From the NCBI GenBank assembly GCA_963807405.1, contig CAWEBU010000006.1, forward strand, positions 1,383,733 to 1,447,732: a DNA stretch of 64,000 nucleotides. Reading direction: 5' to 3'. This document shows, one piece after another, positions 17,456 through 61,014 of this stretch. How positions within the stretch are numbered: the first letter of the stretch is position 1; each line of letters opens with the position of its first letter. This stretch comes from an uncultured Acidobacteriota bacterium (GTDB taxonomy: Bacteria > Acidobacteriota > Vicinamibacteria > Vicinamibacterales > UBA2999). Below the pieces are notes generated by a model. That model was given only the letters and a program-made list of their open reading frames with translations. It had not been told where the DNA came from and made no database searches. A program made the translations under genes and the position numbers.

Positions 17456-17564
17456 ATTGTAACGGGGTCTGTCACCGTCACACGATGTAACGGGGCTGTC
17501 ACCGTCACCACCCGCGAGGGGCGTGACGGTGACAGACCCCGTTACAAATCCCCCGTTACAAATC
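17456..17564. repeat. REP-like composite element: two direct copies plus one inverted copy of TGTAACGGGGTCTGTCACCGTCAC
   Basis: Copy 1 at 17458-17481 is perfect and copy 2 at 17486-17508 lacks one T. The inverted copy at 17523-17546 is perfect. A 14-bp tandem duplication CCCCGTTACAAATC x2 follows at 17537-17564. The same element recurs at 61058-61156. Confidence 0.88.
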
Positions 17565-17579
17565 CGCCAGCCTCAGCCG

Positions 17580-20500
17580 CTAGAACGAGTACTTGACCGC
17601 CAGCTGGATGATGCGGCCGTCCTCGGCGGTCGTGATCTGGCCAAACGGCGTCGTGCCGAAAGTGCCGCTGGGGTTGCTGAAGCGGGCCTGGTTCCAGAGG
17701 TTGAAGGCTTCGACCCGGGCCTGCACACGGTGCCGGCCGGCGAAGTGGAAGTTCTTGAAGACCGACAGGTCGGTGCGCTGGAACCCGGGGCCCCGCACGC
17801 TGTTGCGGCCGGCGTTGCCCGGACGCTCGCCCGAGGCCGCCAGGCTGCGCGCCACGAAGCAGCTCGTGTCGAACCACTGCGCCGTCGTGCGCGGTCCGTT
17901 GTTCGGATCGCACGTCACGTCGGGGCGCTGCGTCTGGTAGCGGATGTCGAGCACACCACCCTGATTGACCGAGAACGGGAAACCCGTCTGCGCCTGGTAG
18001 ATGCCGTTCAGCTGCCAGCCGCCGGCAATCGCCCGCAGCGCCACCGGCTTGTCCTCGAGGCGCGGCAGTTCGTAGCCGAAGCTCAGCACGAAGCGATGAC
18101 GCGCGTCGAACAGCGCCGGCCCCTTCTCGGCCGCCAGGGCGGCGTCGATGCTCGCGTCGTCGCCCTGCTGCACCGGCAGCACGGGACGCGACTCGCCGCC
18201 GATGTTCAGGCCTGACACGTGGTCGGTGGCCTTGCCGAGCGTGTACGACGCCAGCATGTTGAAGCCGCGCGTCGGCAGCAGCCGCACGCTCGTCTGCAGC
18301 GAGTCGAACCAGGACTGCGCCACCGAGAAGGTCGGCCGCACCAGCGCGAAGGCCGGCATGATCCGTGCGCCGCGTGTCGTCTGCCCCGGCGTGTAGACGC
18401 CCGGGTTGATCTCGAGGAACATCGGCAGGTTGTAGCCGCGCGAGCCGACGTAGGCGACCTCGGCGCCGATCTTGCCGGCGAACTGGCGTTGCGCCCCGAC
18501 GTTGAAGTGATACGCGTAGGGCGACTTGAACTGGTCGCCCCAACCGATGATCGTCAGATTGGCCGGGAACGGGTTGGGCGGCCCGGCCACCGCCGCCAGC
18601 GGGTCGGCCAGCGTGATCGGCGTCGGCGTGTTGAGCTCGACGAGCGGCGTGAAGGGCGGCGAGAGCACGCCGCTCTGGAAGAAGTCGCCCTGGCCGGCCA
18701 GGGCATCGTAGAAGACGCCGAAGGCGCCGCGAATGCTGGTCGTGCCGTCCCCGAACGGATCCCAGGCCGCCGACAGGCGCGGGGCGAAGTTGTTCTTGTC
18801 GGTCGGCACGATGCCGCGCGGCACGCCGCTGTCGCCGGCGTAGACGAGACCCGGTCGGCGCGTTCGGATAGACGGTGGACTGCTGCCCGGTGCGGAAGCC
18901 GGTCAGGGCGTCGTTCTTGTCGATGAACGGGGTCGGCAGCTCGTAGCGCAGCCCGAGGTTGACCGTCAGCTGCGACGTGACGCGGAAGTCATCCTGGATG
19001 TAGCCGGCGAAGAGCCAGCCGTAGCCGTCCTGGATGGCCTGGGTGGTCGTGGCCCGCGCCTGTGACGGCAGGCCGAGCAGGAAGTCGGCGGCGCCGTTGC
19101 CGGTGAAGCCGCCGTTGAAGGAGAGGTCGCCGTTGGGCCGGTTGATGAACGCGATGTTCATCGCCTCGCGGCGCACGTCGACGCCGAACTTCAGCGAGTG
19201 CCGGCCGGCGATCCAGGTGACGTCGTTGGCCGCCTGCCACACGTGGTTGACGCGCTTCACGAACGGCTGCTGGGGATCGCCGAGCGCCGAGGTGCCGCCG
19301 CCGAAGAAGCCGGCGACGTTGAACGACGGCAGGCCCGCCGCCAGCGGATTGGTGTTGGCGAAGTTGATCCCGAAGGCGCGCGGATCGAGACCGCTCGTCA
19401 CCGCCGGATTGGCGCTGATGCGGTTGATCGAGACCCGCGCCTGGTTGATGACGTTGGAGGCAAAGACGTAGTTGTGCGAGACCAGTCCGTCCTGCAGGGT
19501 GGCGAGCGCCTTCTGGTCGACGGCGGCGATGACGCGCGGCGTCGTCCGCTCGGTGCCGCTCCGCATGTAGCGCACGAGCACCGACTGCTTCTCCGAGACC
19601 TGGGTGTCGAAGCGCAGGCCGAACTGGTCACGCACGTCGTTGACGGTCGGCGAGACGATGTAGCGGTTGCCGGGAGCGTTCGGCAGCGGCACGAACTCGC
19701 TCAGCAGGCGCGTGGCGACCGGGCTGATGCGGCCGGCGGGAATCGTGTTGTTCGGGAACGGCAGGCCGGTCAGCGGATCGCGGATGGTCGTCGCGCCGAA
19801 GTTGCCGGCCCGCTGCGCTGCCGACAGCACCAGCACGTTGTTGGTGATGCCGGCGTCGTTGCGGAAGCCCTCGTAGTAGCCGAACCCGAACAGCCGGTTC
19901 TTGACGACCGGACCGCCGAGCGCGGCGCCGAACTGGTTCTGCTTCAGCTCCGGCTTGGGCTGGCTCCCGGGCGCGAAGTAGTTGCGCGCCTGCAGCTTGT
20001 CGTCGCGATTGAACTCCCAGGCCGCGCCCGAGAAGGTGTTGCTGCCCGACCTGGTCACGACGTTCACGACCGACCCGGCGTTGCGGCCGTACTCGGCCCC
20101 GAAGGCGTGGGTCAGGATCTTGAACTCCTGGATGGCGTCGGGGGGCGGCCGCAGCACGAAGCCGGTGTTGAAGGTGTCGTTGTTGGTGGCGCCGTCGAGC
20201 AGGAAGTTGTTCGACTGGTTGCGCATGCCGTTGACGTTGAAGCCCCCGGTGACGTTGCCGAAGCCGCCCGGCGTCGCATCGCCGCCCTGCCCGCCGAGGC
20301 CGGTGGGTGGCGCCACCACGCCAGGGATGAGCGTGCCGAGTTGGGTGAAGTTGCGGCCGTTGAGCGGCAGGTCGACCACCTGCTGCTCGTCGATGACGAT
20401 GCCGCGGGTGGCGTTGGCCGTCTCGACCAGGTTGGCCTGCGCGGTCACGGTCACGGTCTCGCTGACCTGCCCGACTTCCATCTGGAAGGCGACGCGCGAG

Positions 20501-20805
20501 GTCTCGGTCACGGTGACGCGGACGCCTTCCTGCCGGGCCACCCGGAAGCCGGTCAACGAGGCGTTGACATCGTAGACACCGGGTTGGAGCAGCGGCACCG
20601 TGTAGAGCCCGTCGGCGCCGGTCACCGCCGTGCGCACGGCGCCGGTGGCCGTGTTGGTGGCTTCGATCGTGACGCCGGGCAGCACACCGCCCGAGGCGTC
20701 GACCACGAGGCCGTTGATCTGTCCGGTGGCCTGCGCCAGCACGGCCGTGACCGACGATGCCATCAGGCACACCGTCAGGAGTCCCATCCTCGTCATCACC
20801 TGCAT
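17580..20805 (-). pseudogene. TonB-dependent receptor with N-terminal carboxypeptidase-regulatory-like domain, disrupted by a +1 frameshift near 18853
   Basis: The N-terminal part is in frame with ORF 17542-20862 (signal peptide, GVTIEATNTATGAVRTAVTGADGLYTVP, plug region LPLNGRNFTQL). The C-terminal part is ORF 17580-18824, ending in the terminal ...VKYSF. The junction reads YPNAPTG|LVYAGDSGVPRGIVPTDKNNF once one base is removed. This may be a sequencing error. Confidence 0.85.
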
Positions 20806-20898
20806 GCTCACGACCTCCAGACTGACGACAGCAGTGAACCCGACGACGCGGCAGGTTGTCAATCATCCGCCCGGCACGGCGCGTTACACTACCGCCAC

Positions 20899-37448: not shown

Positions 37449-39407
37449 CTAGCGCGCGGCGCCGCCGTCGAGCGCGAAGGCGATGAGACGCGCGGGAATC
37501 CCCTTCTCCTGATCGCCGACCGTGAAGGCGACGTACTGCCGGCCGCCGTGCAGATAGGTCATCGGCGGACCGGTCTGCACGCCGGGCAGCGCCGTCTCCC
37601 AGATCGTCCTGCCGGTGGCCTTGTCGAGGGCACGGAACACCGGCTGGCCGCCCCAGCCCTCGCCGGCGAAGAGCAGCGTCTTCGTGGCCAGGAGCCCGGC
37701 TCGCGAACGGCTGCCCGTGGGTGGAATCGTCACGCCCTTCAGCAGCGGGTGATCGCGGATGGCCGGCGGCGTGTCGCCGTTGGCCACCTGCCATGCGATG
37801 GTCGCCGCGCGTGAGGTCGAGGGCGGTGATACGGCCGTACGGCGGCTTCACGACCGGCAGGCCGTCCACCGTCGGCACGCCGCGCTGCTGCACCGCCACG
37901 TAGTCCATGTCCGAGTCGGCGCTCTTCTCCAGCGCGACGAGCGACGGCTGGGTGGCCGAGGCCACGTACATGCAGGCCGGTCTCGGGATCGGCCGCCCCG
38001 TGCTCCCACTGCGCGCCGCCCTGCACGCCGGGCAGCAGGATGGTGCCGATCGTGCCGTCGGGCGCCGCCGCCAGCGACGGCGGCTGGTACATCGCGCCCA
38101 GGCGATAGCCCTCGAGCGCCTTCAGCGCGCGGGCGCGAATCTCCGGCGTGAAGTCCACGACGTCGTCGAGCGTGAAGCCCTGTCGATCGAAGGCGGGCGG
38201 CCGGGTGGGAAACGGCTGGGTGGCGGCGGTGCGTTCGCCGGGCACGTCGCTCTGCGGCACGGCGCGTTCGACGATCGGCCACACCGGCTCGCCGGTCACG
38301 CGATCGAAGACGTAGGTGAAGGCCTGCTTGGTCATGAGTGCCACGGCCTTCACCGTGCGCCCGCCCACGGGTACGTCGATGAGCATCGGCGCGGTGGTGT
38401 TGTCGTAGTCCCAGATGTCGTGATGAATCTGCTGGAAGTGCCACACCACCTTGCCGGTGCGCACGTCGAGGCAGACCAGACTCGACGAGTAGACGTTGTC
38501 GCCCGGCCGGTGGCCGCCGTAGAGATCGCCGGTCGGCGCCTCGACCGGCAGGTAGACGTAGCCGAGCGCGTCGTCGGCCGAGAACGGCGCCCACACGCCG
38601 GCGTTGCCGGTGTACTTCCAGGAGTCGCGCTGCCAGGTCTCGACGAACCGCTCGCCGGCCTGCGGGATCGTGTTGAAGCGCCACAGCTCCTTGCCGGTGC
38701 GGACGTCGAAGCCGCGCACGAAGCCGGGCACGTTGGCCATCGTCCTGGGCCGGAAGCCGAGCTCGAGCGCGGGGCCCACGACGATGACGCCGTTCGTGAT
38801 GACGACCGGCGAGCTGCTGCCGATCGGCGCCAGCGGATCGAACTCGCCGCGGCCCAGGTTGCGCTTGAGGTCGACCAGGCCCTCGGCGCCGAACGACGGC
38901 ACCGGACGGCCGCTGCGGGCGTCGAGCGAGACGAGCCGAAACCCCGGCGTCACCACCACGATGCGCGCCTCGGTGCCGTCGCTCCAGTAGGAGACGCCAC
39001 GGCCGGAGTTGCGCCGCGGCGCGCGGGCCGCGCGCTCCCCTTCGTCGAGCGTCCACCGCCAGCGTTCGACGCCGGTGGCCGGGTCGAGCGCCACGACGTC
39101 GCGGTTCAGGCCGGCGGTCATGTAGAGCAGGCCGTCGACGTAGAGCGGGGCGGCCTCGTTCTTGAACTCCGGCTTCGGGCCGTAGGGGCCGAGGTCGCGC
39201 TCCCACGCCACGCCCAGCCGGGCCACGTTGTCGCGCGTGATCTCGGTCGAGCGGCGCGTAGCGCAGGCTGCGGTTGTCGCCGTGGTAGGCGCGCCACTCG
39301 CCGGCCGGCGCCGGCGCTGCTGGCGGTGTCGGCGCCTGGGCGCCGAGCGTGACGACCGACAGCAGCAGCGTTGCCGCGACAGCGTGACAGCGGGACGGCA
39401 ACGTCAT
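37449..39407 (-). pseudogene. PQQ-dependent (quinoprotein) dehydrogenase, glucose/quinate-shikimate family, with three +1 frameshifts
   Basis: Four frame segments are involved (ORFs 37848-39521, 37739-39226, 36670-37971 and 37449-37787). The junctions, each repaired by removing one base, are RYAPLD|EITRDNVARLGVAW (~39245), DPETGL|MYVASATQPS (~37972) and LDLTRGD|IAWQVANGDTP (~37800). Signal peptide MTLPSRCHAVAATLLLSVVTLGAQA and beta-propeller W-motifs are present (VWHFQQIHHDIWDYD). Confidence 0.85.
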
Positions 39408-40384
39408 CGTTTCCCTGGTTCGGGTCCCCGGTCTCCGGTCCCGGGCTCGCCGGCACCCGGATTCCCGTTCCCGGTTCGCGGCTCGTTCACGTACTCGAAG
39501 CCGAAGCGGCCCTTCACGCACAGGTTGCCGGCCGTGACGCCGTTCTCGAACGGCGACGTCACCTTGACGATGCGCTCATCCTGCACGTGCGCGGTCAGCG
39601 TGCAGCCGACGCCGCAGTAGGGGCAGATGGTGTCGGTGACCGTCTGCCGCTCGGGCGCCCACTGGCCGGCCTGGCGCAGTTCGAACTCGGGCTTGGCCAT
39701 CAGGGCGCCGGTCGGACAGACCGCGATGCAGTTGCCGCAGTAGACGCACGCGGATTCGGGCAGCGGCACGTCGAGCTCGGTCGAGATGTGGGCGTGGAAG
39801 CCGCGGCCGGCCACCGCGATGGCGAAGGTGTTCTGGGCGTCGGTGCCGCAGGCCTCGACGCACTTGTAGCAGAGCACGCACTTCGAATAGTCGCGCACGT
39901 AGAGGTCGTTGTCGTCCTTGAGCGGCTGGGCCACGGTGGCGGCCTGCGGACCGAAGCGTGACGGATCGGCCCCGTATTCCGCCAGCATCGGCGTCAGCTC
40001 GTCGGCCGTCGACAGGTCGACCGACGAGGCGAGCAGCTCGAGCACGACCTTGCGCGAGGTGCGTACGCGCGGCGAGTTCGTCTGCACCTTCATGCCGGCC
40101 TCGGCCTTGCGCGAGCAGGCCGGCGCCAGCACGCGCGCGCCCTCGACCTCGACGACGCACACGCGACAGACGTTCACTGGCGTGAGCGTCTCCAGGTAGC
40201 AGATCGTCGGGATGTTCCTGCCGGCGGCGCGGCAGGCGTCGAGCAGGGTCGCGCCCTCGGGAACCTCCACCGCTTGCCCGTCGATCGTGACCGCGATGAG
40301 CGGCCGCGCGGGCGCCGGCGGCGGGGCCGGTATGACGGCCCCGCGCGGCGGCAGATTGAACCAGATGGCCTGTTCGTCACTCAC
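39404..40384 (-). CDS. formate dehydrogenase alpha-subunit N-terminal Fe-S module as a separate ORF (NuoG-like 2Fe-2S, two 4Fe-4S, and the Mo-enzyme 4Fe-4S domain)
   Basis: 326 aa with a GTG start that overlaps the NuoEF stop as GTGA. Cys motifs are CYLETLTPVNVCRVC...APAC, CVLCYKCVEAC, CVYCGNCIAVCP and CPYCGVGC...CVKGRFGFEYV. It then ends in a Gly/Pro-rich 25-aa tail, and its stop overlaps the PQQ-dehydrogenase ATG as ATGA. Confidence 0.85.
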   Translation of the reverse strand: MSDEQAIWFNLPPRGAVIPAPPPAPARPLIAVTIDGQAVEVPEGATLLDACRAAGRNIPTICYLETLTPVNVCRVCVVEVEGARVLAPACSRKAEAGMKVQTNSPRVRTSRKVVLELLASSVDLSTADELTPMLAEYGADPSRFGPQAATVAQPLKDDNDLYVRDYSKCVLCYKCVEACGTDAQNTFAIAVAGRGFHAHISTELDVPLPESACVYCGNCIAVCPTGALMAKPEFELRQAGQWAPERQTVTDTICPYCGVGCTLTAHVQDERIVKVTSPFENGVTAGNLCVKGRFGFEYVNEPRTGNGNPGAGEPGTGDRGPEPGKR

Positions 40385-42262
40385 GATGCGCGCTCCCCCT
40401 GGAAGACATGCAGGCGCTGCACCGCCGACTCGATGGCGGCCGAGGCCGTCTGGCCGAGCCCGCAGATCGAGGCATCGCGCATCGCCTGGCCCAGTTCGCT
40501 CAGGAGCGCCAGCCGCTCCGGTGCCGCGGTGCCGGCGGCCCGCAGCTGCTCGAGCAGCTCACGCTGCCGCACCGTGCCGACCCGGCACGGCACGCACTGC
40601 CCGCAGCTTTCGTCCTCGAAGAAGGCCGCGATCCGGCCGAGCAGATCGGGAAGATCCGCGGTGTCGTCGAACGCCATCACGACGCCCGAGCCCAGCGTGA
40701 CGCCGGCCTCCCGCGTGTCCTCGAACGTCATCCGCAGGTCCAGAGACTCGGGACCGACGAACATGCCCGCCGCGCCGCCGAGCAGGACCGCCTGCAGCGG
40801 ACGCCCGCCGGCCACGCCGCCGGCCCGCGCCATCACCTCGCCGAGCGTGACCCCGAACGGGAACTCGTAGAGGCCCGGCTGCGCGACATGGCCCGACACG
40901 CAGAAGAGCCGTGTGCCGGTGGATTTCGCGGTGCCGGTGGCGGCCCAGGCGGCCGCCCCGTCGACCAGAATCGGCAGCACGTTGGCCAGCGTCTCGACGT
41001 TGTTGACGACGGTCGGCTGGCCGAACAGGCCGACCTGACTCGGGAACGGCGGCTTCGACCGCGGCTCGCCGCGCTTGCCCTCGAGCGAGTTGAAGAGCGC
41101 CGTCTCCTCGCCGCAGATATAGGCGCCGGCACCGCGCCGGACCTCGATCTCGAAGACGTGACCCGACCCGGCGATGTCGGGTCCGAGCAGCCCGGCGCCG
41201 CGCGCGGCGGCCGCGGCCTCGCAGGATGCGGGCCTCGGCGTCGGGATACTCCCCGCGCACGTAGAGGAACCCGCGTTCGCTGCGCGTGGCGATGCCGCAG
41301 ATGGTCATTGCCTCGACGATCGCGAACGGATCGCCGGCGACCAGCACGCGGTCCTTGAACGTCCCGGGCTCGGACTCATCGGCGTTGCAGACGACATGGT
41401 GCGGCAGCGCCGGCTCGGCCGCCACCGCCTCCCACTTCACGCCGGTGGGAAAGGCGGCGCCGCCGCGGCCCATGAGCCGCGCGGCCTTCACTTCGGCGAT
41501 GACCCCCGCCGGCCCGAGCTCGATGGCGCGCGCCAGCGCGCGGTAGCCGCCGGCAGCGCAATAAGCCTCGAGGCTCGTGGGGTCGACGACGCCGACTCGA
41601 GCGAGCAGGCTCAGCCCGGGCTCGCCGGCCTGCGGCACGACCGACCGCAGCTCGTCGAGCGATTCCTTCAAGTGCCCCACGGTGCCGGGCCCGAGCGCGC
41701 TTGCCACCGCGGCCGCCGAGCTCACCGGCGCCACGACGCGGCGCTCGGCCGAATCACCCGCGCGCACGATGAGCGCCGCCGGCGCCCGTTCGCACTGCCC
41801 CAGGCACGGGCTGCGCATCCAGGTCGTGTCACGGCCGGACGGCGCCGCGCCCTCGGGCCCGAGCGTCGCCGTCAGCGCCTCGCAGAGCGCCTCGGCCCCG
41901 CGCACGCGGCAGGCGATGTCGTCGCACACGTGGGCCACGGTAGCGGCCCGCGGTGCGGTCGCAAACAGGTGGTAGAAGGTGAGCACCCCCCACGCCTCGG
42001 CCGGCGGCACGACCAGCCGCTGGCAGATGTAGTTCATCGCGCCACGGCTGACCCAGCCGACGCGGTCCTGGACGGCGTGGAAGGCGGGCAGCAGGAGATG
42101 GCGCTGCTGCTCCGCCGCCGCCACCCCGCCACGCGACGTGCGGCCGTCGCGCTCGATATCCCGGGGGCCGCCCTCCCAGCCGGAGCCGGGGGGCCCGAGC
42201 AGCCGGTCGACGGCGTCGCGCTCAGCGGCGGTCGCCGCCGGGCCGATGACGTGAATATCCAC
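40381..42262 (-). pseudogene. fused NuoE-like/NuoF-like NAD(H)-binding diaphorase subunit (FdsG/FdsB-type), +1 frameshift near 41221
   Basis: The NuoE-like region is CDDIACRVRGAEALCEAL...SPCLGQCERAP. NuoF motifs are GRGGAAFPTGVKWE, GAGAYICGEETALFNSLEGKRGEPR, ESCGQCVPCRVG and ICGLGQTA. The junction reads YPDAEARIL|EAAAAARGAGLLGPDI after removing one base. GTG start at 42262 with a GAGGAG RBS. Confidence 0.85.
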
Positions 42263-42294
42263 TCGCGACTCCTCGCCTGCTCCCCTGGTGGGGA

Positions 42295-44256
42295 CTACGC
42301 GCCGACCGCTTCGATCTGCACGGCAGCGGCCTTGAACTCGGCCGTGCCGGACTTCGGATCGACCGCGTCGATGGTGAGGTGGTTGGTGGCGACCTCCTCG
42401 GGAAAGTGAAACGTCATGAACGTCAGCCCCGGCCGCAGTGCCGGATCGATGTGAACGGGGGCCACCACGCTGCCCCGCCGCGACCGGATGCGCACCGTCT
42501 GCCCTTCGCTGAAGCCGAGCCGGAGGGCGTCCTCCGGTGAGAGATCGATGGTCTCGCCGCGGCGTACCGGCGAGGCATAGGGGCCCGTCTGCACGCCCGT
42601 GTTGTACTCCTCGAGGCGTCGCCCGGTCGTCAGGCGGAAGGGATACTCGGCGTCGACGGCTTCAAAGGGCAGCGCGTGCTCGACGACCGAGAACGGCGCG
42701 CGCGGACCGGGCACGGGACGATCCCACAGCCGTCCGTGCAGGAACGCTTCGCCCGGATGCGTCTCGTCATAGCACGGCCACTGCAGCCCTCCCTCCGCGG
42801 CGAGCCGGTCGTAGCTCATGCCGCCGTGCACCGGCGAGAGACCGCGCAGTTCGTCCCAGATGCCCTCGGCGTCGGTGGCCGGCCACGTCGCGCCCATGCG
42901 GCGCGCCAGGTCGACGATGATCGTCAGGTCGTCACGGCTCTCGCCGAGTGGCGCCTTGGTCCGGCGCACGCGCTGCACGCGCCGTTCGCTCGACGTCACG
43001 GTGCCGTCGGACTCGAAGGCGCCGGCGGCCGCCGGCAGCACGACATCGGCCAGTTCCGCCGTGGCCGTGCGCATCACGTCCTGCACGACGAGAAACTCCA
43101 CGTTGCGGAGCACGCGGCCGGAGTGGTGTTGGTCGGCTTCCGACTGCGCCGGGTTCTCGCCGATGACGTAGAGCGCCGTGAGGTCACCGCGCCCCATCGC
43201 CTCGAACATGCCGGTCAGGTGCCAGCCGCGGACCGGCGGCACGGTCACCCCCCAGGTGCGATCGAAGGCGGCCCGCACCTGGTCGTTCTCGACGTGGAGG
43301 AAGCCGGGCAACCGGTCGGGCAACGCGCCCATGTCGCCGCCGCCCTGCACGTTGTTCTGCCCGCGCAGCGGATTGATGCCCGAGCCCCAGCGCCCGACGT
43401 GCCCGGTGAGCAGCGCCAGGTTGATCAGGGCGAGCACGTTGTCGACGGCGTTGTGGTGCTCGGTGATGCCGAGCGTCCAGCAGATCATGGCGCGCGGCGC
43501 GGTGGCGAAGCCATGGGCCATCTCGCGGATGACGGCGGCCGGCACGCCGGTGGCCTGCTCACCGCGCTCGAGCGTCCACGGCAGCACGGCCGCCTTGTAG
43601 TCCTCGAACCCGGTCGTGGCGTGATTGATGAAGTCGCGGTGCGCCAGGCCCGCCACGATGATCTCGCGCGCCATGGCATGGGCCAGCGCGATGTCGGTGC
43701 CGACGTCGAGCCCGGCCCAGAGGTCCGCCCAGCGGGCCGACGAGGTGCGCCGCGGATCGATGGCGAACAGCCGCGCTCCCCGCTGCAGGCCCTTGAGCAG
43801 GTGGTGGAAGAAGATCGGATGCGTCTCGCGGGCGTTCGAGCCCCACAGCAGGACGCAGTCCGTCTCCTCGATCTCGCGGTACGACGTGGTGCCGCCGCCC
43901 ATCCCGAAGACCGCCGCCAGACCGGCGACGCTCGGCGCGTGTCAAGTGCGGTTGCAGCTGTCGATGTTGTTCGAGCCGATGACGGTGCGGGCGAACTTCT
44001 GCGCCGCGTAGTTCATCTCGTTGGTGCCCTTCGAGCAGCTGAAGAGGCCGAACGTCGACGGACCGCGGCGCGCCACCGCGTCGCGGAACCCCGCCGCCGC
44101 CTTGTCGAGCGCTTCGTCCCAGGTCGCCTGGCGAAGCGCCCCGCCGCGAACGTCGCGCACCAGGGGATGTGTCAACCGTTGCATGCGAGCCATACGCGGA
44201 AGAGTAACACCTCGGGCTCGCGGCGGCATCCGGCGGGCCACCGCGCCGGCGCTCAC
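42295..44256 (-). CDS. fdhA: formate dehydrogenase catalytic (molybdopterin) module, selenocysteine-containing (TGA at 43942-43944 read as Sec)
   Basis: ORFs 43942-44256 and 42295-43902 are in the same frame, separated only by TGA: ...NNIDSCNRT-U-HAPSVAGLAAVFGMGGGTTSY... This is the catalytic Cys/Sec position of formate dehydrogenases. Molybdopterin-domain motifs follow (NPLRGQNNVQGGGDMG). It lacks the N-terminal 4Fe-4S domain. The GTG start overlaps the upstream stop as GTGA. Confidence 0.85.
43909..43933 (-). promoter_or_regulatory. SECIS-like hairpin downstream of the in-frame UGA
   Basis: The mRNA reads GAGC-GUCGCC-GGUCU-GGCGGC-GGUC: a 6-bp GC-rich upper stem with a GGUCU apical loop. 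The loop begins 19 nt after the UGA, the same register as GGUCU in the E. coli fdhF SECIS (recalled from memory). Confidence 0.6.
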
Positions 44257-44504
44257 CCGCCGTCGAGCGTCCAGCGGTCCAGCGGCGTCGACAGCAGCAG
44301 GTAGCGGCGCCGCAGCGCCACGACGCGCGGTGCCAGCTCGGCCACCGGGAACTCGCGCGCGCGGCAGCGATCGCGCAAGGTGCGAATCTCGTGGCGGTAG
44401 AGGTCGTTGATCGCCTCACGCAGCGTGGCCGGCGTCGTGTCGGCGCGCGGCCGCAGGCCGTGGGCGGCGAGCGCATCGAGAACCTCGGGGCGGTAGGCCG
44501 GCAT
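44253..44504 (-). CDS. hypothetical 83-aa protein translationally coupled to the formate dehydrogenase gene
   Basis: MPAYRPEVLDALAAHGLRPRADTTPATLREAINDLYRHEIRTLRDRCRAREFPVAELAPRVVALRRRYLLLSTPLDRWTLDGG. Its ATG overlaps the upstream stop (ATGA) and its stop overlaps the fdhA GTG (GTGA). No family was recognised. Confidence 0.5.
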   Translation of the reverse strand: MPAYRPEVLDALAAHGLRPRADTTPATLREAINDLYRHEIRTLRDRCRAREFPVAELAPRVVALRRRYLLLSTPLDRWTLDGG

Positions 44505-45232
44505 CAGGGCCTGCACAGCAGCAGATAGGCACGCGCCTCGGCGGCCGCGGCCCCCGGCGTGGCGTCGGCGGGGAGCAGGCGTTGCACCTGGCGGTAGGCC
44601 TCGCAGGCGCCCCGTTTGTTGGCGCGACGATCGCGGGCACGCGCCAGTCCGCGCCACGCGGCCGGGCTGTCGTGGGCAGCGGTCGCCTTCAGAAACGCTG
44701 CCTCAGCCAGTTCGTAGTCGTCAACGCCGTGCCACAGCTCACCCTCCGCGAGGTCAATCGTCAGTGGCCAGGCCGGCGCGGACCCGGCGAGCGTGAGGCG
44801 GACCGAGAGCCCCCGAGCCTGCTCGATCCACACCCGCATCTCGTCACGCTCATCCTGGGCGGCGGCGGCCGCCGCGCGCAGGAGCGCCGCCGCATAGGCG
44901 GCCTCGGACCAGGGCGGCCCGAGCGACGTCACGGCGGCCACGGCGGCCGCCACCGGTTCGAGCGCGTCGGCCGTGCCGCCGCGGTCGGCGGCGGCCGTCG
45001 CGGCCAGCCAGCCGCGGGCGGCCCACGCCGCCAGCGTCAACGTGTCACACCCGGCCGGGGCGTCGTAACCGAGCCGCAGCCGCTCGGCGGCGTCGGCATA
45101 GGCGCCGCGCGCCACCTCCGCCGCCGCCTGCTCGAGCGCCGCGGCGGCCACTGGCGAGCACCGGCCGGCGGGCGGTTGCGGCATGGCGGCCGTCATGGTG
45201 GCCAGCAGCAGGAAGAGCACGTCCGGGGACAT
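44504..45232 (-). CDS. hypothetical Ala-rich protein with N-terminal hydrophobic segment
   Basis: 242-aa ORF and first gene of the minus-strand cluster. The N-terminus MSPDVLFLLLATMTAAM is signal-like, and the helical Ala-rich repeats are possibly TPR-like. No family was recognised. Confidence 0.45.
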   Translation of the reverse strand: MSPDVLFLLLATMTAAMPQPPAGRCSPVAAAALEQAAAEVARGAYADAAERLRLGYDAPAGCDTLTLAAWAARGWLAATAAADRGGTADALEPVAAAVAAVTSLGPPWSEAAYAAALLRAAAAAAQDERDEMRVWIEQARGLSVRLTLAGSAPAWPLTIDLAEGELWHGVDDYELAEAAFLKATAAHDSPAAWRGLARARDRRANKRGACEAYRQVQRLLPADATPGAAAAEARAYLLLCRP

Positions 45233-58575: not shown

Positions 58576-58964
58576 CGTGCGCCCCCGTCCTCGGACCGGA
58601 TGGCGATCGGACGTCCGTCCTGGTCGACCGCCACGAGCACCACCTCGGCGTAGGTGACCTTCTCGCGCTCGCCGGCGCCGGCGCCCCAGCGCTCCACCTC
58701 GACCGACACGGCGACGGTGACCGAGGTCCGGCCTACCCGCAACGTCTCGGTGTAGAAGCTGACGAGGTCGCCGACCAACACCGGCGCGTGGAACTCCACC
58801 TCGCGAAAGGCCTTGGTCACGAAGCGGTGCGGCGCCGTCTTGCGGGCCTCGACGGCCGACGCCAGGTCGATGTGCGAGAGGATGACGCCACCGAAGATCG
58901 TCCCCAGGTTGTTGGTGTCTTTGGGCAGCAGCAGCACCTTGATGGCGGGGACGCGTTCGGACAT
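58572..58964 (-). CDS. acyl-CoA thioesterase (hotdog fold, YciA-like)
   Basis: 130 aa with LLPKDTNNLGTIFGGVILSHIDLA...EVEFHAPVLVGDLVSFY. Confidence 0.85.
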   Translation of the reverse strand: MSERVPAIKVLLLPKDTNNLGTIFGGVILSHIDLASAVEARKTAPHRFVTKAFREVEFHAPVLVGDLVSFYTETLRVGRTSVTVAVSVEVERWGAGAGEREKVTYAEVVLVAVDQDGRPIAIRSEDGGAR

Positions 58965-59048
58965 TGCTGTGATGGTAGTAAAAAGATCGTGTCAGACGCG
59001 AATCCGCCGTGCACTCCCGGGAATTTCGTTTATTCTGATTGGTCTGAC

Positions 59049-61014
<1,966 letters not shown>

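Follow-up and report, generated by a model that had tools for sequence, protein, structure and literature searches.

Metal-dependent formate dehydrogenases (FDHs) are intensively studied for CO2 reduction, and their subunit layouts are regarded as well catalogued. An FDH locus in a 64,000-nucleotide stretch of DNA from an uncultured Acidobacteriota bacterium (assembly GCA_963807405.1, contig CAWEBU010000006.1, positions 1,383,733 to 1,447,732; the whole stretch is referred to as the window) raises the question whether the alpha subunit of such an enzyme can be encoded as two polypeptides in reversed gene order, or whether this arrangement is an artefact of assembly or decay. The window was taken from a 3.7-Mb metagenomic contig. 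A first-pass annotation, made from the sequence of the window, had proposed that the iron-sulfur (Fe-S) part and the catalytic part of the alpha subunit lie in two separate open reading frames (ORFs) on either side of a NuoE/NuoF-like gene. The analysis described here indicates that the arrangement is real and that the locus encodes a known kind of enzyme in a variant form that appears not to have been described before, rather than a novel type of system.

On the minus strand the gene order is catalytic core (44193 or 44256 to 42295), NuoE-NuoF fusion (NuoEF, 42262 to 40381) and Fe-S subunit (40384 to 39404). As called on this strand, the ORFs are 43942-44256 (104 amino acids), 42295-43902 (535 amino acids), 40559-42262 (567 amino acids), 40381-40980 (199 amino acids) and 39404-40384 (326 amino acids). 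The features of the system are:

42295..44193, minus strand: catalytic core, FDH alpha domains II-IV, predicted to bind a molybdenum or tungsten bis-pyranopterin guanine dinucleotide (Mo/W-bisPGD) cofactor; about 632 amino acids including selenocysteine (Sec)
43942..43944, minus strand: predicted catalytic Sec codon, an in-frame TGA within SCNRT-U-HAPSVAGL, assigned from the alignment of relatives
43912..43930, minus strand: hairpin resembling a selenocysteine insertion sequence (SECIS), 7-bp stem and GGUCU loop, assigned from the minimum-free-energy fold and a 33-sequence alignment
40381..42262, minus strand: NuoE-NuoF fusion, predicted diaphorase with [2Fe-2S] cluster, flavin mononucleotide (FMN) and nicotinamide adenine dinucleotide (NAD(H)) site and [4Fe-4S] cluster, domains assigned after repair of one nucleotide
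39404..40384, minus strand: Fe-S subunit, similar to HoxU and the NuoG N-terminus and followed by molybdoenzyme domain I; 326 amino acids, assigned from Pfam, NCBIfam and the match to FdsA

Division of the alpha subunit between two genes

A Pfam scan of the 326-residue Fe-S ORF detected Fer2_4 (residues 30-104), two Fer4 domains, Fer4_Nqo3 and Molybdop_Fe4S4 (residues 248-300, 2.1e-18), and no Molybdopterin domain. In NCBIfam the ORF matched HoxU (2.3e-42, residues 30-232) and NuoG (1.8e-43). The proposal that this ORF holds the N-terminal Fe-S motifs of an FDH alpha subunit is borne out by these matches. The catalytic frame 42295-44256 contained Molybdopterin (3.9e-61) and Molydop_binding (9.1e-28) domains, and no Molybdop_Fe4S4 domain was detected in it by Pfam, in agreement with a true split. 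Its score against the Fdh-alpha profile TIGR01591 was 612 bits, just under the cut-off of 666, because profile positions 1-48 are missing from this frame. Positions 1-50 of the profile are found in residues 252-301 of the Fe-S ORF, and positions 49-672 in residues 23-648 of the catalytic frame. The same division was obtained with FdsA of Rhodobacter capsulatus (6tg9_A, 958 amino acids), of which residues 24-304 are matched by the Fe-S ORF and residues 305-933 by the catalytic frame. The breakpoint lies where the first-pass annotation had placed it and, judged from both alignments, the two halves abut exactly, with no part duplicated or lost.

In FdsA, a HoxU-like module (about 250 residues) precedes an FdhF-like one (about 700 residues; PMC7171172). 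The cut in the window is located about 50 residues past this junction, after domain I. As a result, cluster A1 and the lysine of the CVKGRFG motif remain on the HoxU-like side, which leaves the catalytic polypeptide without any Fe-S cluster. An alignment of family members (n = 10) revealed 16 invariant cysteines in the Fe-S subunit, which suffice for one [2Fe-2S] and three [4Fe-4S] clusters. Twelve of them are in the HoxU/NuoG-like N-terminal module; the domain I ligands C254, C257, C261 and C289 are likewise invariant, and the CVKGRFG lysine K291 is nearly so. This subunit has the full set of ligands for clusters A1, A2, A3 and A5. For cluster A4, no His or Cys is present at the positions of FdsA H117, C121, C124 and C130, and there is no invariant Cys from C90 to C169. 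The His-Cys3 cluster A4 is also missing from some of the contiguous relatives, P0193 and P0202 among them, and in R. capsulatus it is situated at the dimer interface, off the direct chain A1-A2-A3-A5-B6-FMN (PMC7171172). The 25-residue Gly/Pro-rich tail that had been noted at the end of the Fe-S ORF is real and is not conserved, as the tails of relatives extend about 4-27 residues past the GRFG motif block and differ in sequence.

The catalytic selenocysteine codon and single-base frameshifts

The frame 42295-44256 comprises 654 codons with one internal stop, a TGA at 43944-43942 in SNNIDSCNRT-(stop)-HAPSVAGL, which had been missed when the frame was described as an open ORF. The position of this TGA is the catalytic Sec/Cys-His site of formate dehydrogenases, and the arginine active-site motif PLRGQNNVQG is kept alongside U-H in the catalytic core. 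All split-family loci with an intact catalytic gene (33/33) have a TGA at the same position, within the motif SCNRT-U-HAPSV[A/V]GL. By position and conservation, the in-frame TGA is identified as a selenocysteine codon. Gene callers split the catalytic gene of relatives at this codon into pieces of about 61-83 and about 518-535 amino acids.

A hairpin with a 7-bp stem and an invariant GGUCU loop begins 14 nucleotides after the U of the UGA and appears in the minimum-free-energy fold. In the 33-sequence alignment, wobble positions within the stem are invariant or nearly so and those outside the stem are variable, and 94.6% of the cells are paired in the register of the hairpin versus 18-82% in shifted registers. 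In one relative (L047), a C-G pair of the stem is replaced by G-C through compensatory change. Folded by itself, the single sequence was energetically no better than shuffles (z = -0.14), and an Rfam scan of the whole window at gathering thresholds gave no match. A permissive scan placed SECIS_3 at the exact site of the hairpin with 13.3 bits and E = 2, far below threshold. Given this weak match and the unremarkable single fold, the case for a SECIS element is a comparative one, drawn from the family alignment.

The reading frame of the catalytic gene reaches up to GTG 44256, but ATG 44193 (MARMQRLTHPLVR) is its probable start. Many relatives have a stop codon only 81-93 codons ahead of the Sec codon; their first conserved residues are those of the RLTxPLVR motif, with a Met 3-12 residues in front of it. 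The three four-nucleotide overlaps that had been put forward as signs of translational coupling are affected unequally. The probable start at ATG 44193 makes the GTGA at 44253-44256 doubtful as a start/stop coupling. The other two are real and recur in relatives: the GTGA at 40381-40384 joins the stop of NuoEF to the start of the Fe-S gene, an overlap of 4 nucleotides in four of five called relatives and of 1 nucleotide in the remaining one, and in the ATGA at 39404-39407 the start of the downstream gene overlaps the stop of the Fe-S gene, as it does in the related locus L001.

The ORFs of 567 and 199 amino acids (40559-42262 and 40381-40980) are two frames of one NuoE-NuoF fusion. Relative to the loci L001 and L002, the window has a 1-nucleotide insertion near 41222, a break that had escaped notice when the NuoE/F-like gene was taken to be intact. 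Removal of one base yields a 626-residue protein, which agrees with proteins of 623-626 amino acids in relatives; the called relatives, in which NuoEF is intact, span 598-626 amino acids. The repaired protein contains the Pfam domains 2Fe-2S_thioredx, Complex1_51K, SLBB and NADH_4Fe-4S and matches nuoF_fam at 1.3e-129. The closest solved chains are HydB, HoxF and FdsB. The protein ends after the NADH_4Fe-4S domain and has none of the extra C-terminal ferredoxin domains of bifurcating HydB-type subunits.

Similar frameshifts were found elsewhere in the window. The downstream gene for a pyrroloquinoline quinone (PQQ)-dependent dehydrogenase (37449-39407) contains three 1-nucleotide insertions, near 39244, 37971 and 37801. 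A scan of GC content by codon position revealed more frame switches, lacking a stop codon, of which those at about 18840 and about 59300 were confirmed by reading the ORFs. The former splits a large outer-membrane-receptor-like gene (17542-20862) over two frames and the latter an arginine decarboxylase-like gene (58788-61014), both assigned by eye; the scan gave a third candidate switch at about 32500. These positions suggest a density of roughly one indel per 8-9 kb of the assembly. The most likely reading of the insertion in NuoEF is an assembly indel, of which the window would have several. Pseudogenisation of NuoEF was considered and rejected, since unrelated genes elsewhere in the window carry similar single-base frameshifts.

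Distribution, origin and genomic neighbourhood of the split layout

A protein search with the Fe-S ORF against clusters at 90% identity returned at least 120 clusters at 76-89% identity, nearly all of 300-335 amino acids (range 280-434), and none of the clusters listed by this search contained a Molybdopterin domain. A second search, seeded from a Bryobacterales member, returned at least 120 further clusters, nearly all of similar size, which brings the stand-alone Fe-S proteins to more than 240 clusters altogether. A library clustered at 50% identity contained just two further true split representatives, P0121 (66%) and P0123 (54%). Library matches of about 360 amino acids are contiguous enzymes cut by gene callers at their own Sec codon.

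Gene calls around L001, L002 and the distant L003 (52-54% identity) show the same order of catalytic core, NuoEF and Fe-S subunit. The order was then mapped by tblastn with the three proteins in a scan of one genome per GTDB species, which gave at least 80 loci. Close relatives at the Vicinamibacterales level (more than 75% identical) are not among these 80 loci, and the counts are lower bounds. At least 32 of the 80, each from a different species, have the three genes in full order. At least eight more among the 80 listed are incomplete and consistent with the order: three are cut by the contig end upstream of NuoEF, three have the Fe-S gene only, at a contig edge, and the others are L017 and L020. 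Among the loci listed, those with an Fe-S identity to the window of at least 56% are split. Of the 40 remaining (Fe-S at most 53% identical), 39 have a contiguous FdhA, which mostly follows NuoEF and precedes it in three loci. The Anaerolineales locus L044 is the one exception: it is split at the HoxU/domain I boundary, where about 1.4 kb separates the HoxU-like part from domain I and the catalytic core (L044:7001-11188). In the contiguous sister group, L046 carries a tandem second copy of domain I plus catalytic core (L046:2845-7659).

According to the record titles, the split loci belong to about eight phyla: Acidobacteriota (Angelobacter, Acidiferrum, Bryobacterales), Actinomycetota (Gaiellaceae, Acidimicrobiia, Streptosporangiaceae), Chloroflexota (Chloroflexia, Limnocylindrales, Dehalococcoidia), Planctomycetota (Gemmata), Verrucomicrobiota (Verrucomicrobiia), Gemmatimonadota and Armatimonadota (Chthonomonas), and one metagenome-assembled genome (MAG) labelled 'delta proteobacterium'. 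One record titled 'Candidatus Micrarchaeaceae archaeon' (L015, DATLRQ010000161.1) has a typical bacterial operon with an Fe-S part 66% identical; this contig is probably mis-binned. The most divergent member, L003 (GCA_033854255.1), has a catalytic-like gene of 518 amino acids (L003:4658-6214) without the active-site Sec/Cys (VDCGAGPGHSPGV), with an altered Arg motif and without domain IV. Its NuoEF and Fe-S genes are intact and adjoin genes for a multihaem cytochrome and a bc complex. The catalytic-like gene may be a catalytically dead relic, comparable to the NuoG C-terminus.

The first-pass annotation had asked whether the split order is already a common annotated architecture. The layout is indeed common in genomes; the annotation is only generic, the Fe-S protein being named in databases '2Fe-2S iron-sulfur cluster-binding protein' or 'YjgC-like'. 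Its statement that no FDH with a split and permuted layout has been described agrees with the full-text literature searched, in which no publication on the split was found; subscription journals were mostly outside this search, and the absence is not proof. A split alpha subunit is also absent from a 2021 survey of N-terminally extended FDHs and from a 2026 review.

In neighbour-joining trees of the Fe-S, catalytic and NuoEF regions, the split family forms one clade in all three, with no contiguous form nested inside, and a single origin is well supported by these trees. The sister clade in the NuoEF tree consists of contiguous Anaerolineales-type enzymes (L040, L044-L046, L048 and L066), and the sister of the Fe-S protein is one of these, L040. 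The ancestor was likely contiguous, with Anaerolineales-type enzymes as the closest contiguous kin of the Fe-S and NuoEF proteins. The split may have originated by fission of one gene, or else a catalytic core already devoid of domain I may have been recruited. A fission may have proceeded by tandem duplication and deletion, or by movement of the 5' 0.9 kb of an FdhA-NuoEF operon downstream. The window is 72% identical to a Gaiellaceae locus and 60-67% identical to Bryobacterales loci; these identities are out of step with taxonomy, which suggests horizontal spread.

Two further genes flank the system in the window:

44253..44504, minus strand: 83-amino-acid ORF directly upstream; its probable start is an internal ATG of the 134-amino-acid ORF 44253-44657
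37449..39407, minus strand: PQQ-dependent dehydrogenase of the glucose/quinate/shikimate family, downstream neighbour, with a predicted signal-peptide-like N-terminus

The 83-residue ORF is overlapped by 1 nucleotide by a 242-residue ORF (44504-45232, minus strand) that also lies upstream of the catalytic gene. Neither has a Pfam or NCBIfam match, and homologues were seen in L001 and L002 only. On this distribution the 83-residue ORF is lineage-specific and outside the conserved core. The PQQ dehydrogenase has an intact ortholog of 645 amino acids in L001 and is absent from the L002 and L003 loci; it is a neighbour and no conserved part of the system. A fourth conserved subunit such as FdsD was sought, and clustering of the flanking ORFs of 40 split-family loci gave no neighbour common to all of them. 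FdhD/MobA-like genes are found near nine of these loci and formate-tetrahydrofolate ligase near three, which fits a role in formate metabolism.

The proposed enzyme and its relation to known systems

The findings are, in our view, probably best explained by a cytoplasmic, NAD(H)-linked, Sec-containing Mo/W-bisPGD FDH of the FdsABG/Fdh1AB kind, composed of three polypeptides in place of two or three with an undivided alpha, whose gene order arose once and then spread across several soil phyla. The catalytic core would bring in domains II-IV with Sec, the active-site His and Arg motifs and the domains that bind the pterin, and no Fe-S cluster of its own; its UGA would be read as Sec with the aid of the hairpin, which resembles that of E. 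coli fdhF. The Fe-S subunit would supply the proximal cluster A1 (FS0) and the adjacent lysine, the ferredoxin-type clusters A2 and A3, and the [2Fe-2S] cluster A5, and the NuoE-NuoF fusion would supply a [4Fe-4S] cluster, FMN and the NAD(H) site. Electrons from formate oxidised at Mo/W-Sec would pass to A1 in trans, across a non-covalent interface between domain I and domains II-III, and from there via A2, A3, A5, the [4Fe-4S] cluster of NuoF and FMN to NAD+, a path modelled on the R. capsulatus structure paper (PMC7171172). The predicted enzyme would be non-bifurcating. We infer the physical assembly of the three subunits, this electron path, the specificity for NAD+ and the direction of catalysis from the domain content and the likeness to solved complexes. 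No conserved docking extensions were found at the new termini in the alignments of relatives, and the subunits therefore presumably associate via the ancestral interface.

Several observations weigh against this proposal. For NuoEF and the Fe-S gene of L017 and L020, no catalytic gene is present in the 3.6-5 kb upstream or in any downstream part of the locus; it may lie in another part of the genome or have disappeared. In L021, L027 and L052, unrelated genes stand between the catalytic gene and NuoEF. No cultured or characterised member was found, all named matches of the Bryobacterales-seeded search being MAGs. In the 64-kb window selA, selB, selD and tRNA-Sec were not seen, and the window is without any tRNA gene; NuoEF is itself frameshifted there. 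The catalytic core scored 424-481 bits against FdhF-type chains and 385-413 bits against FdsA-type chains, and its nearest contiguous relatives (L078, L058, L053 and others) differ from those of the other two proteins, which leaves a simple fission of one ancestral gene unproven.

The loci without a nearby catalytic gene, the three Chloroflexota loci with insertions, and L003, where NuoEF and the Fe-S protein persist beside a gene without Sec/Cys and domain IV, could mean that there are two separate systems, with NuoEF and the Fe-S protein as a stand-alone diaphorase or electron-transfer module and a catalytic core that uses another redox partner. We regard this as unlikely: such a catalytic core would have no Fe-S cluster to pass electrons on, molybdoenzyme domain I of the Fe-S subunit would serve no purpose unless paired with a pterin protein, the halves are exactly complementary, the split clade is monophyletic for all three proteins, and the genes are adjacent in 32 of the 34 listed loci with enough upstream sequence. 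That the same three-subunit enzyme is instead NADP-specific, CO2-reducing in vivo or electron-bifurcating with ferredoxin seems quite improbable. The top solved relatives of NuoEF do include bifurcating HydB and NfnB-type subunits, and formate-tetrahydrofolate ligase adjoins three loci; against this, NuoEF is without the additional C-terminal ferredoxin clusters of HydB-type subunits, no conserved ferredoxin-like extra subunit occurs in the neighbourhood, and MAGs from soil or freshwater account for most of the named sources in the scan. Least credible of all is misassembly of the split or permutation, or decay of this copy to a pseudogene. The in-frame TGA, the insertion in NuoEF and the three in the PQQ dehydrogenase gene could be read in that way; however, the order is common to dozens of independent assemblies from different projects and phyla, the TGA is found at the Sec position of every intact relative and is followed by a conserved hairpin, and the similar frameshifts near 59300 and 18840 in unrelated genes of the window point to assembly indel errors. 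The reversed order around the NuoE-NuoF fusion was correctly judged to be settled and not a recent breakage.

The genes interrupting the three loci were assigned by eye. The insert in L021 (L021:3483-4814) consists of a PIN-like toxin/antitoxin pair and a small Cys-containing protein, that in the Chloroflexota locus L027 (L027:4128-4976) of a small Cys-containing protein as in L021, and that in L052 (L052:2534-4941), also from Chloroflexota, of a multi-pass membrane protein.

Turning from the three-subunit enzyme itself to the position of its cut, it is possible, if doubtful, that the cut after domain I is an adaptation and not a neutral fission. The NuoEF and Fe-S unit carrying A1 might serve as a platform that accepts a cluster-free, separately matured Mo/W-Sec module, which could be encoded elsewhere (as in L017 and L020) or degenerate (as in L003). 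Alternatively, placing the Sec module in a first gene might limit the cost of failed recoding, as failure would leave an 83-residue peptide only, compared with a fragment of about 380 residues from a contiguous gene that would be loaded with Fe-S clusters and could poison NuoEF. A Sec TGA is also present in about 16 of the 39 contiguous relatives; such common use of Sec weakens this second explanation. If the cut is an adaptation, the enzyme would to our knowledge be the first natural DMSO (dimethyl sulfoxide)-reductase-family catalytic subunit that is given its proximal cluster in trans, and it could provide a naturally occurring model for CO2-reducing enzymes of modular design. In the literature searched, no catalytic subunit of the superfamily was found to be described as obtaining its proximal cluster in trans. 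The split family suggests that the proximal [4Fe-4S] domain with its electron-transfer lysine can sit apart from the pterin/Sec polypeptide, an arrangement kept in many soil lineages, and it may offer a natural design for maturing a catalytic module separately from the electron-transfer module. Gene-level surveys may miss the family or call it incomplete, owing to the Sec stop, the missing N-terminal domain and the generic name of the Fe-S protein. The locus also points to a formate-oxidising enzyme that is probably important in uncultured members of the Acidobacteriota, Actinomycetota and Chloroflexota.

Among known systems, FdsABG(D) of R. capsulatus and Cupriavidus necator (PDB 6TG9/6TGA, 6VW7) has the same predicted cofactor chain, and NuoEF matches its FdsB and FdsG subunits. 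The enzyme described here differs in its two-polypeptide alpha, cut after domain I and encoded in reversed order, in the fusion of NuoE with NuoF, in having Sec in place of Cys, and in the lack of the His-ligated A4; no FdsD was detected. The beta subunit of FDH1 from Methylobacterium extorquens is a NuoE-NuoF fusion, as it is here, and a match to its chain was obtained. In this tungsten enzyme (Fdh1AB, PDB 7E5Z/7VW6) the alpha subunit has a NuoG-like N-terminus, as has the Fe-S subunit of the split family; the FDH1 alpha is, however, contiguous (989 amino acids) and uses Cys. HoxEFU of NAD-reducing [NiFe] hydrogenases shares the gene order NuoE, NuoF, HoxU-like and the subunit logic, and residues 1-250 of FdsA have been likened to HoxU in the R. 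capsulatus paper (PMC7171172). HoxU has no molybdoenzyme domain I, whereas in the split family A1 travels with the HoxU-like part. In HylABC-FdhF2 and FDHs of the hydrogen-dependent CO2 reductase (HDCR) type, the Fe-S relay subunits are also separate from the catalytic subunit, and FdhF of T. kivui (PDB 7QV7) is the best match of the catalytic core (481 bits). The FdhF of these systems keeps domain I and its [4Fe-4S] cluster, in contrast to the catalytic subunit of the split family, whose alignment with FdhF chains begins near residue 60 of the latter. The split of L044 appears to be at this more usual HoxU/domain I boundary.

The formylmethanofuran dehydrogenase FwdB/FwdD is a precedent for a molybdo/tungstopterin enzyme with a domain on a separate polypeptide; there it is domain IV rather than domain I that is split off, in another enzyme and with no permutation of gene order. 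For the active site, the closest parallel is FdhH of E. coli (fdhF), in which a UGA is found at the catalytic position with the spacing U-H-x-P-S-V-A-G-L and a hairpin with a GGUCU loop lies over the AGL codons. FdhH belongs to the formate hydrogenlyase complex and carries domain I within its one subunit, unlike the catalytic core of the split family, for which domain I would be provided by the Fe-S subunit.

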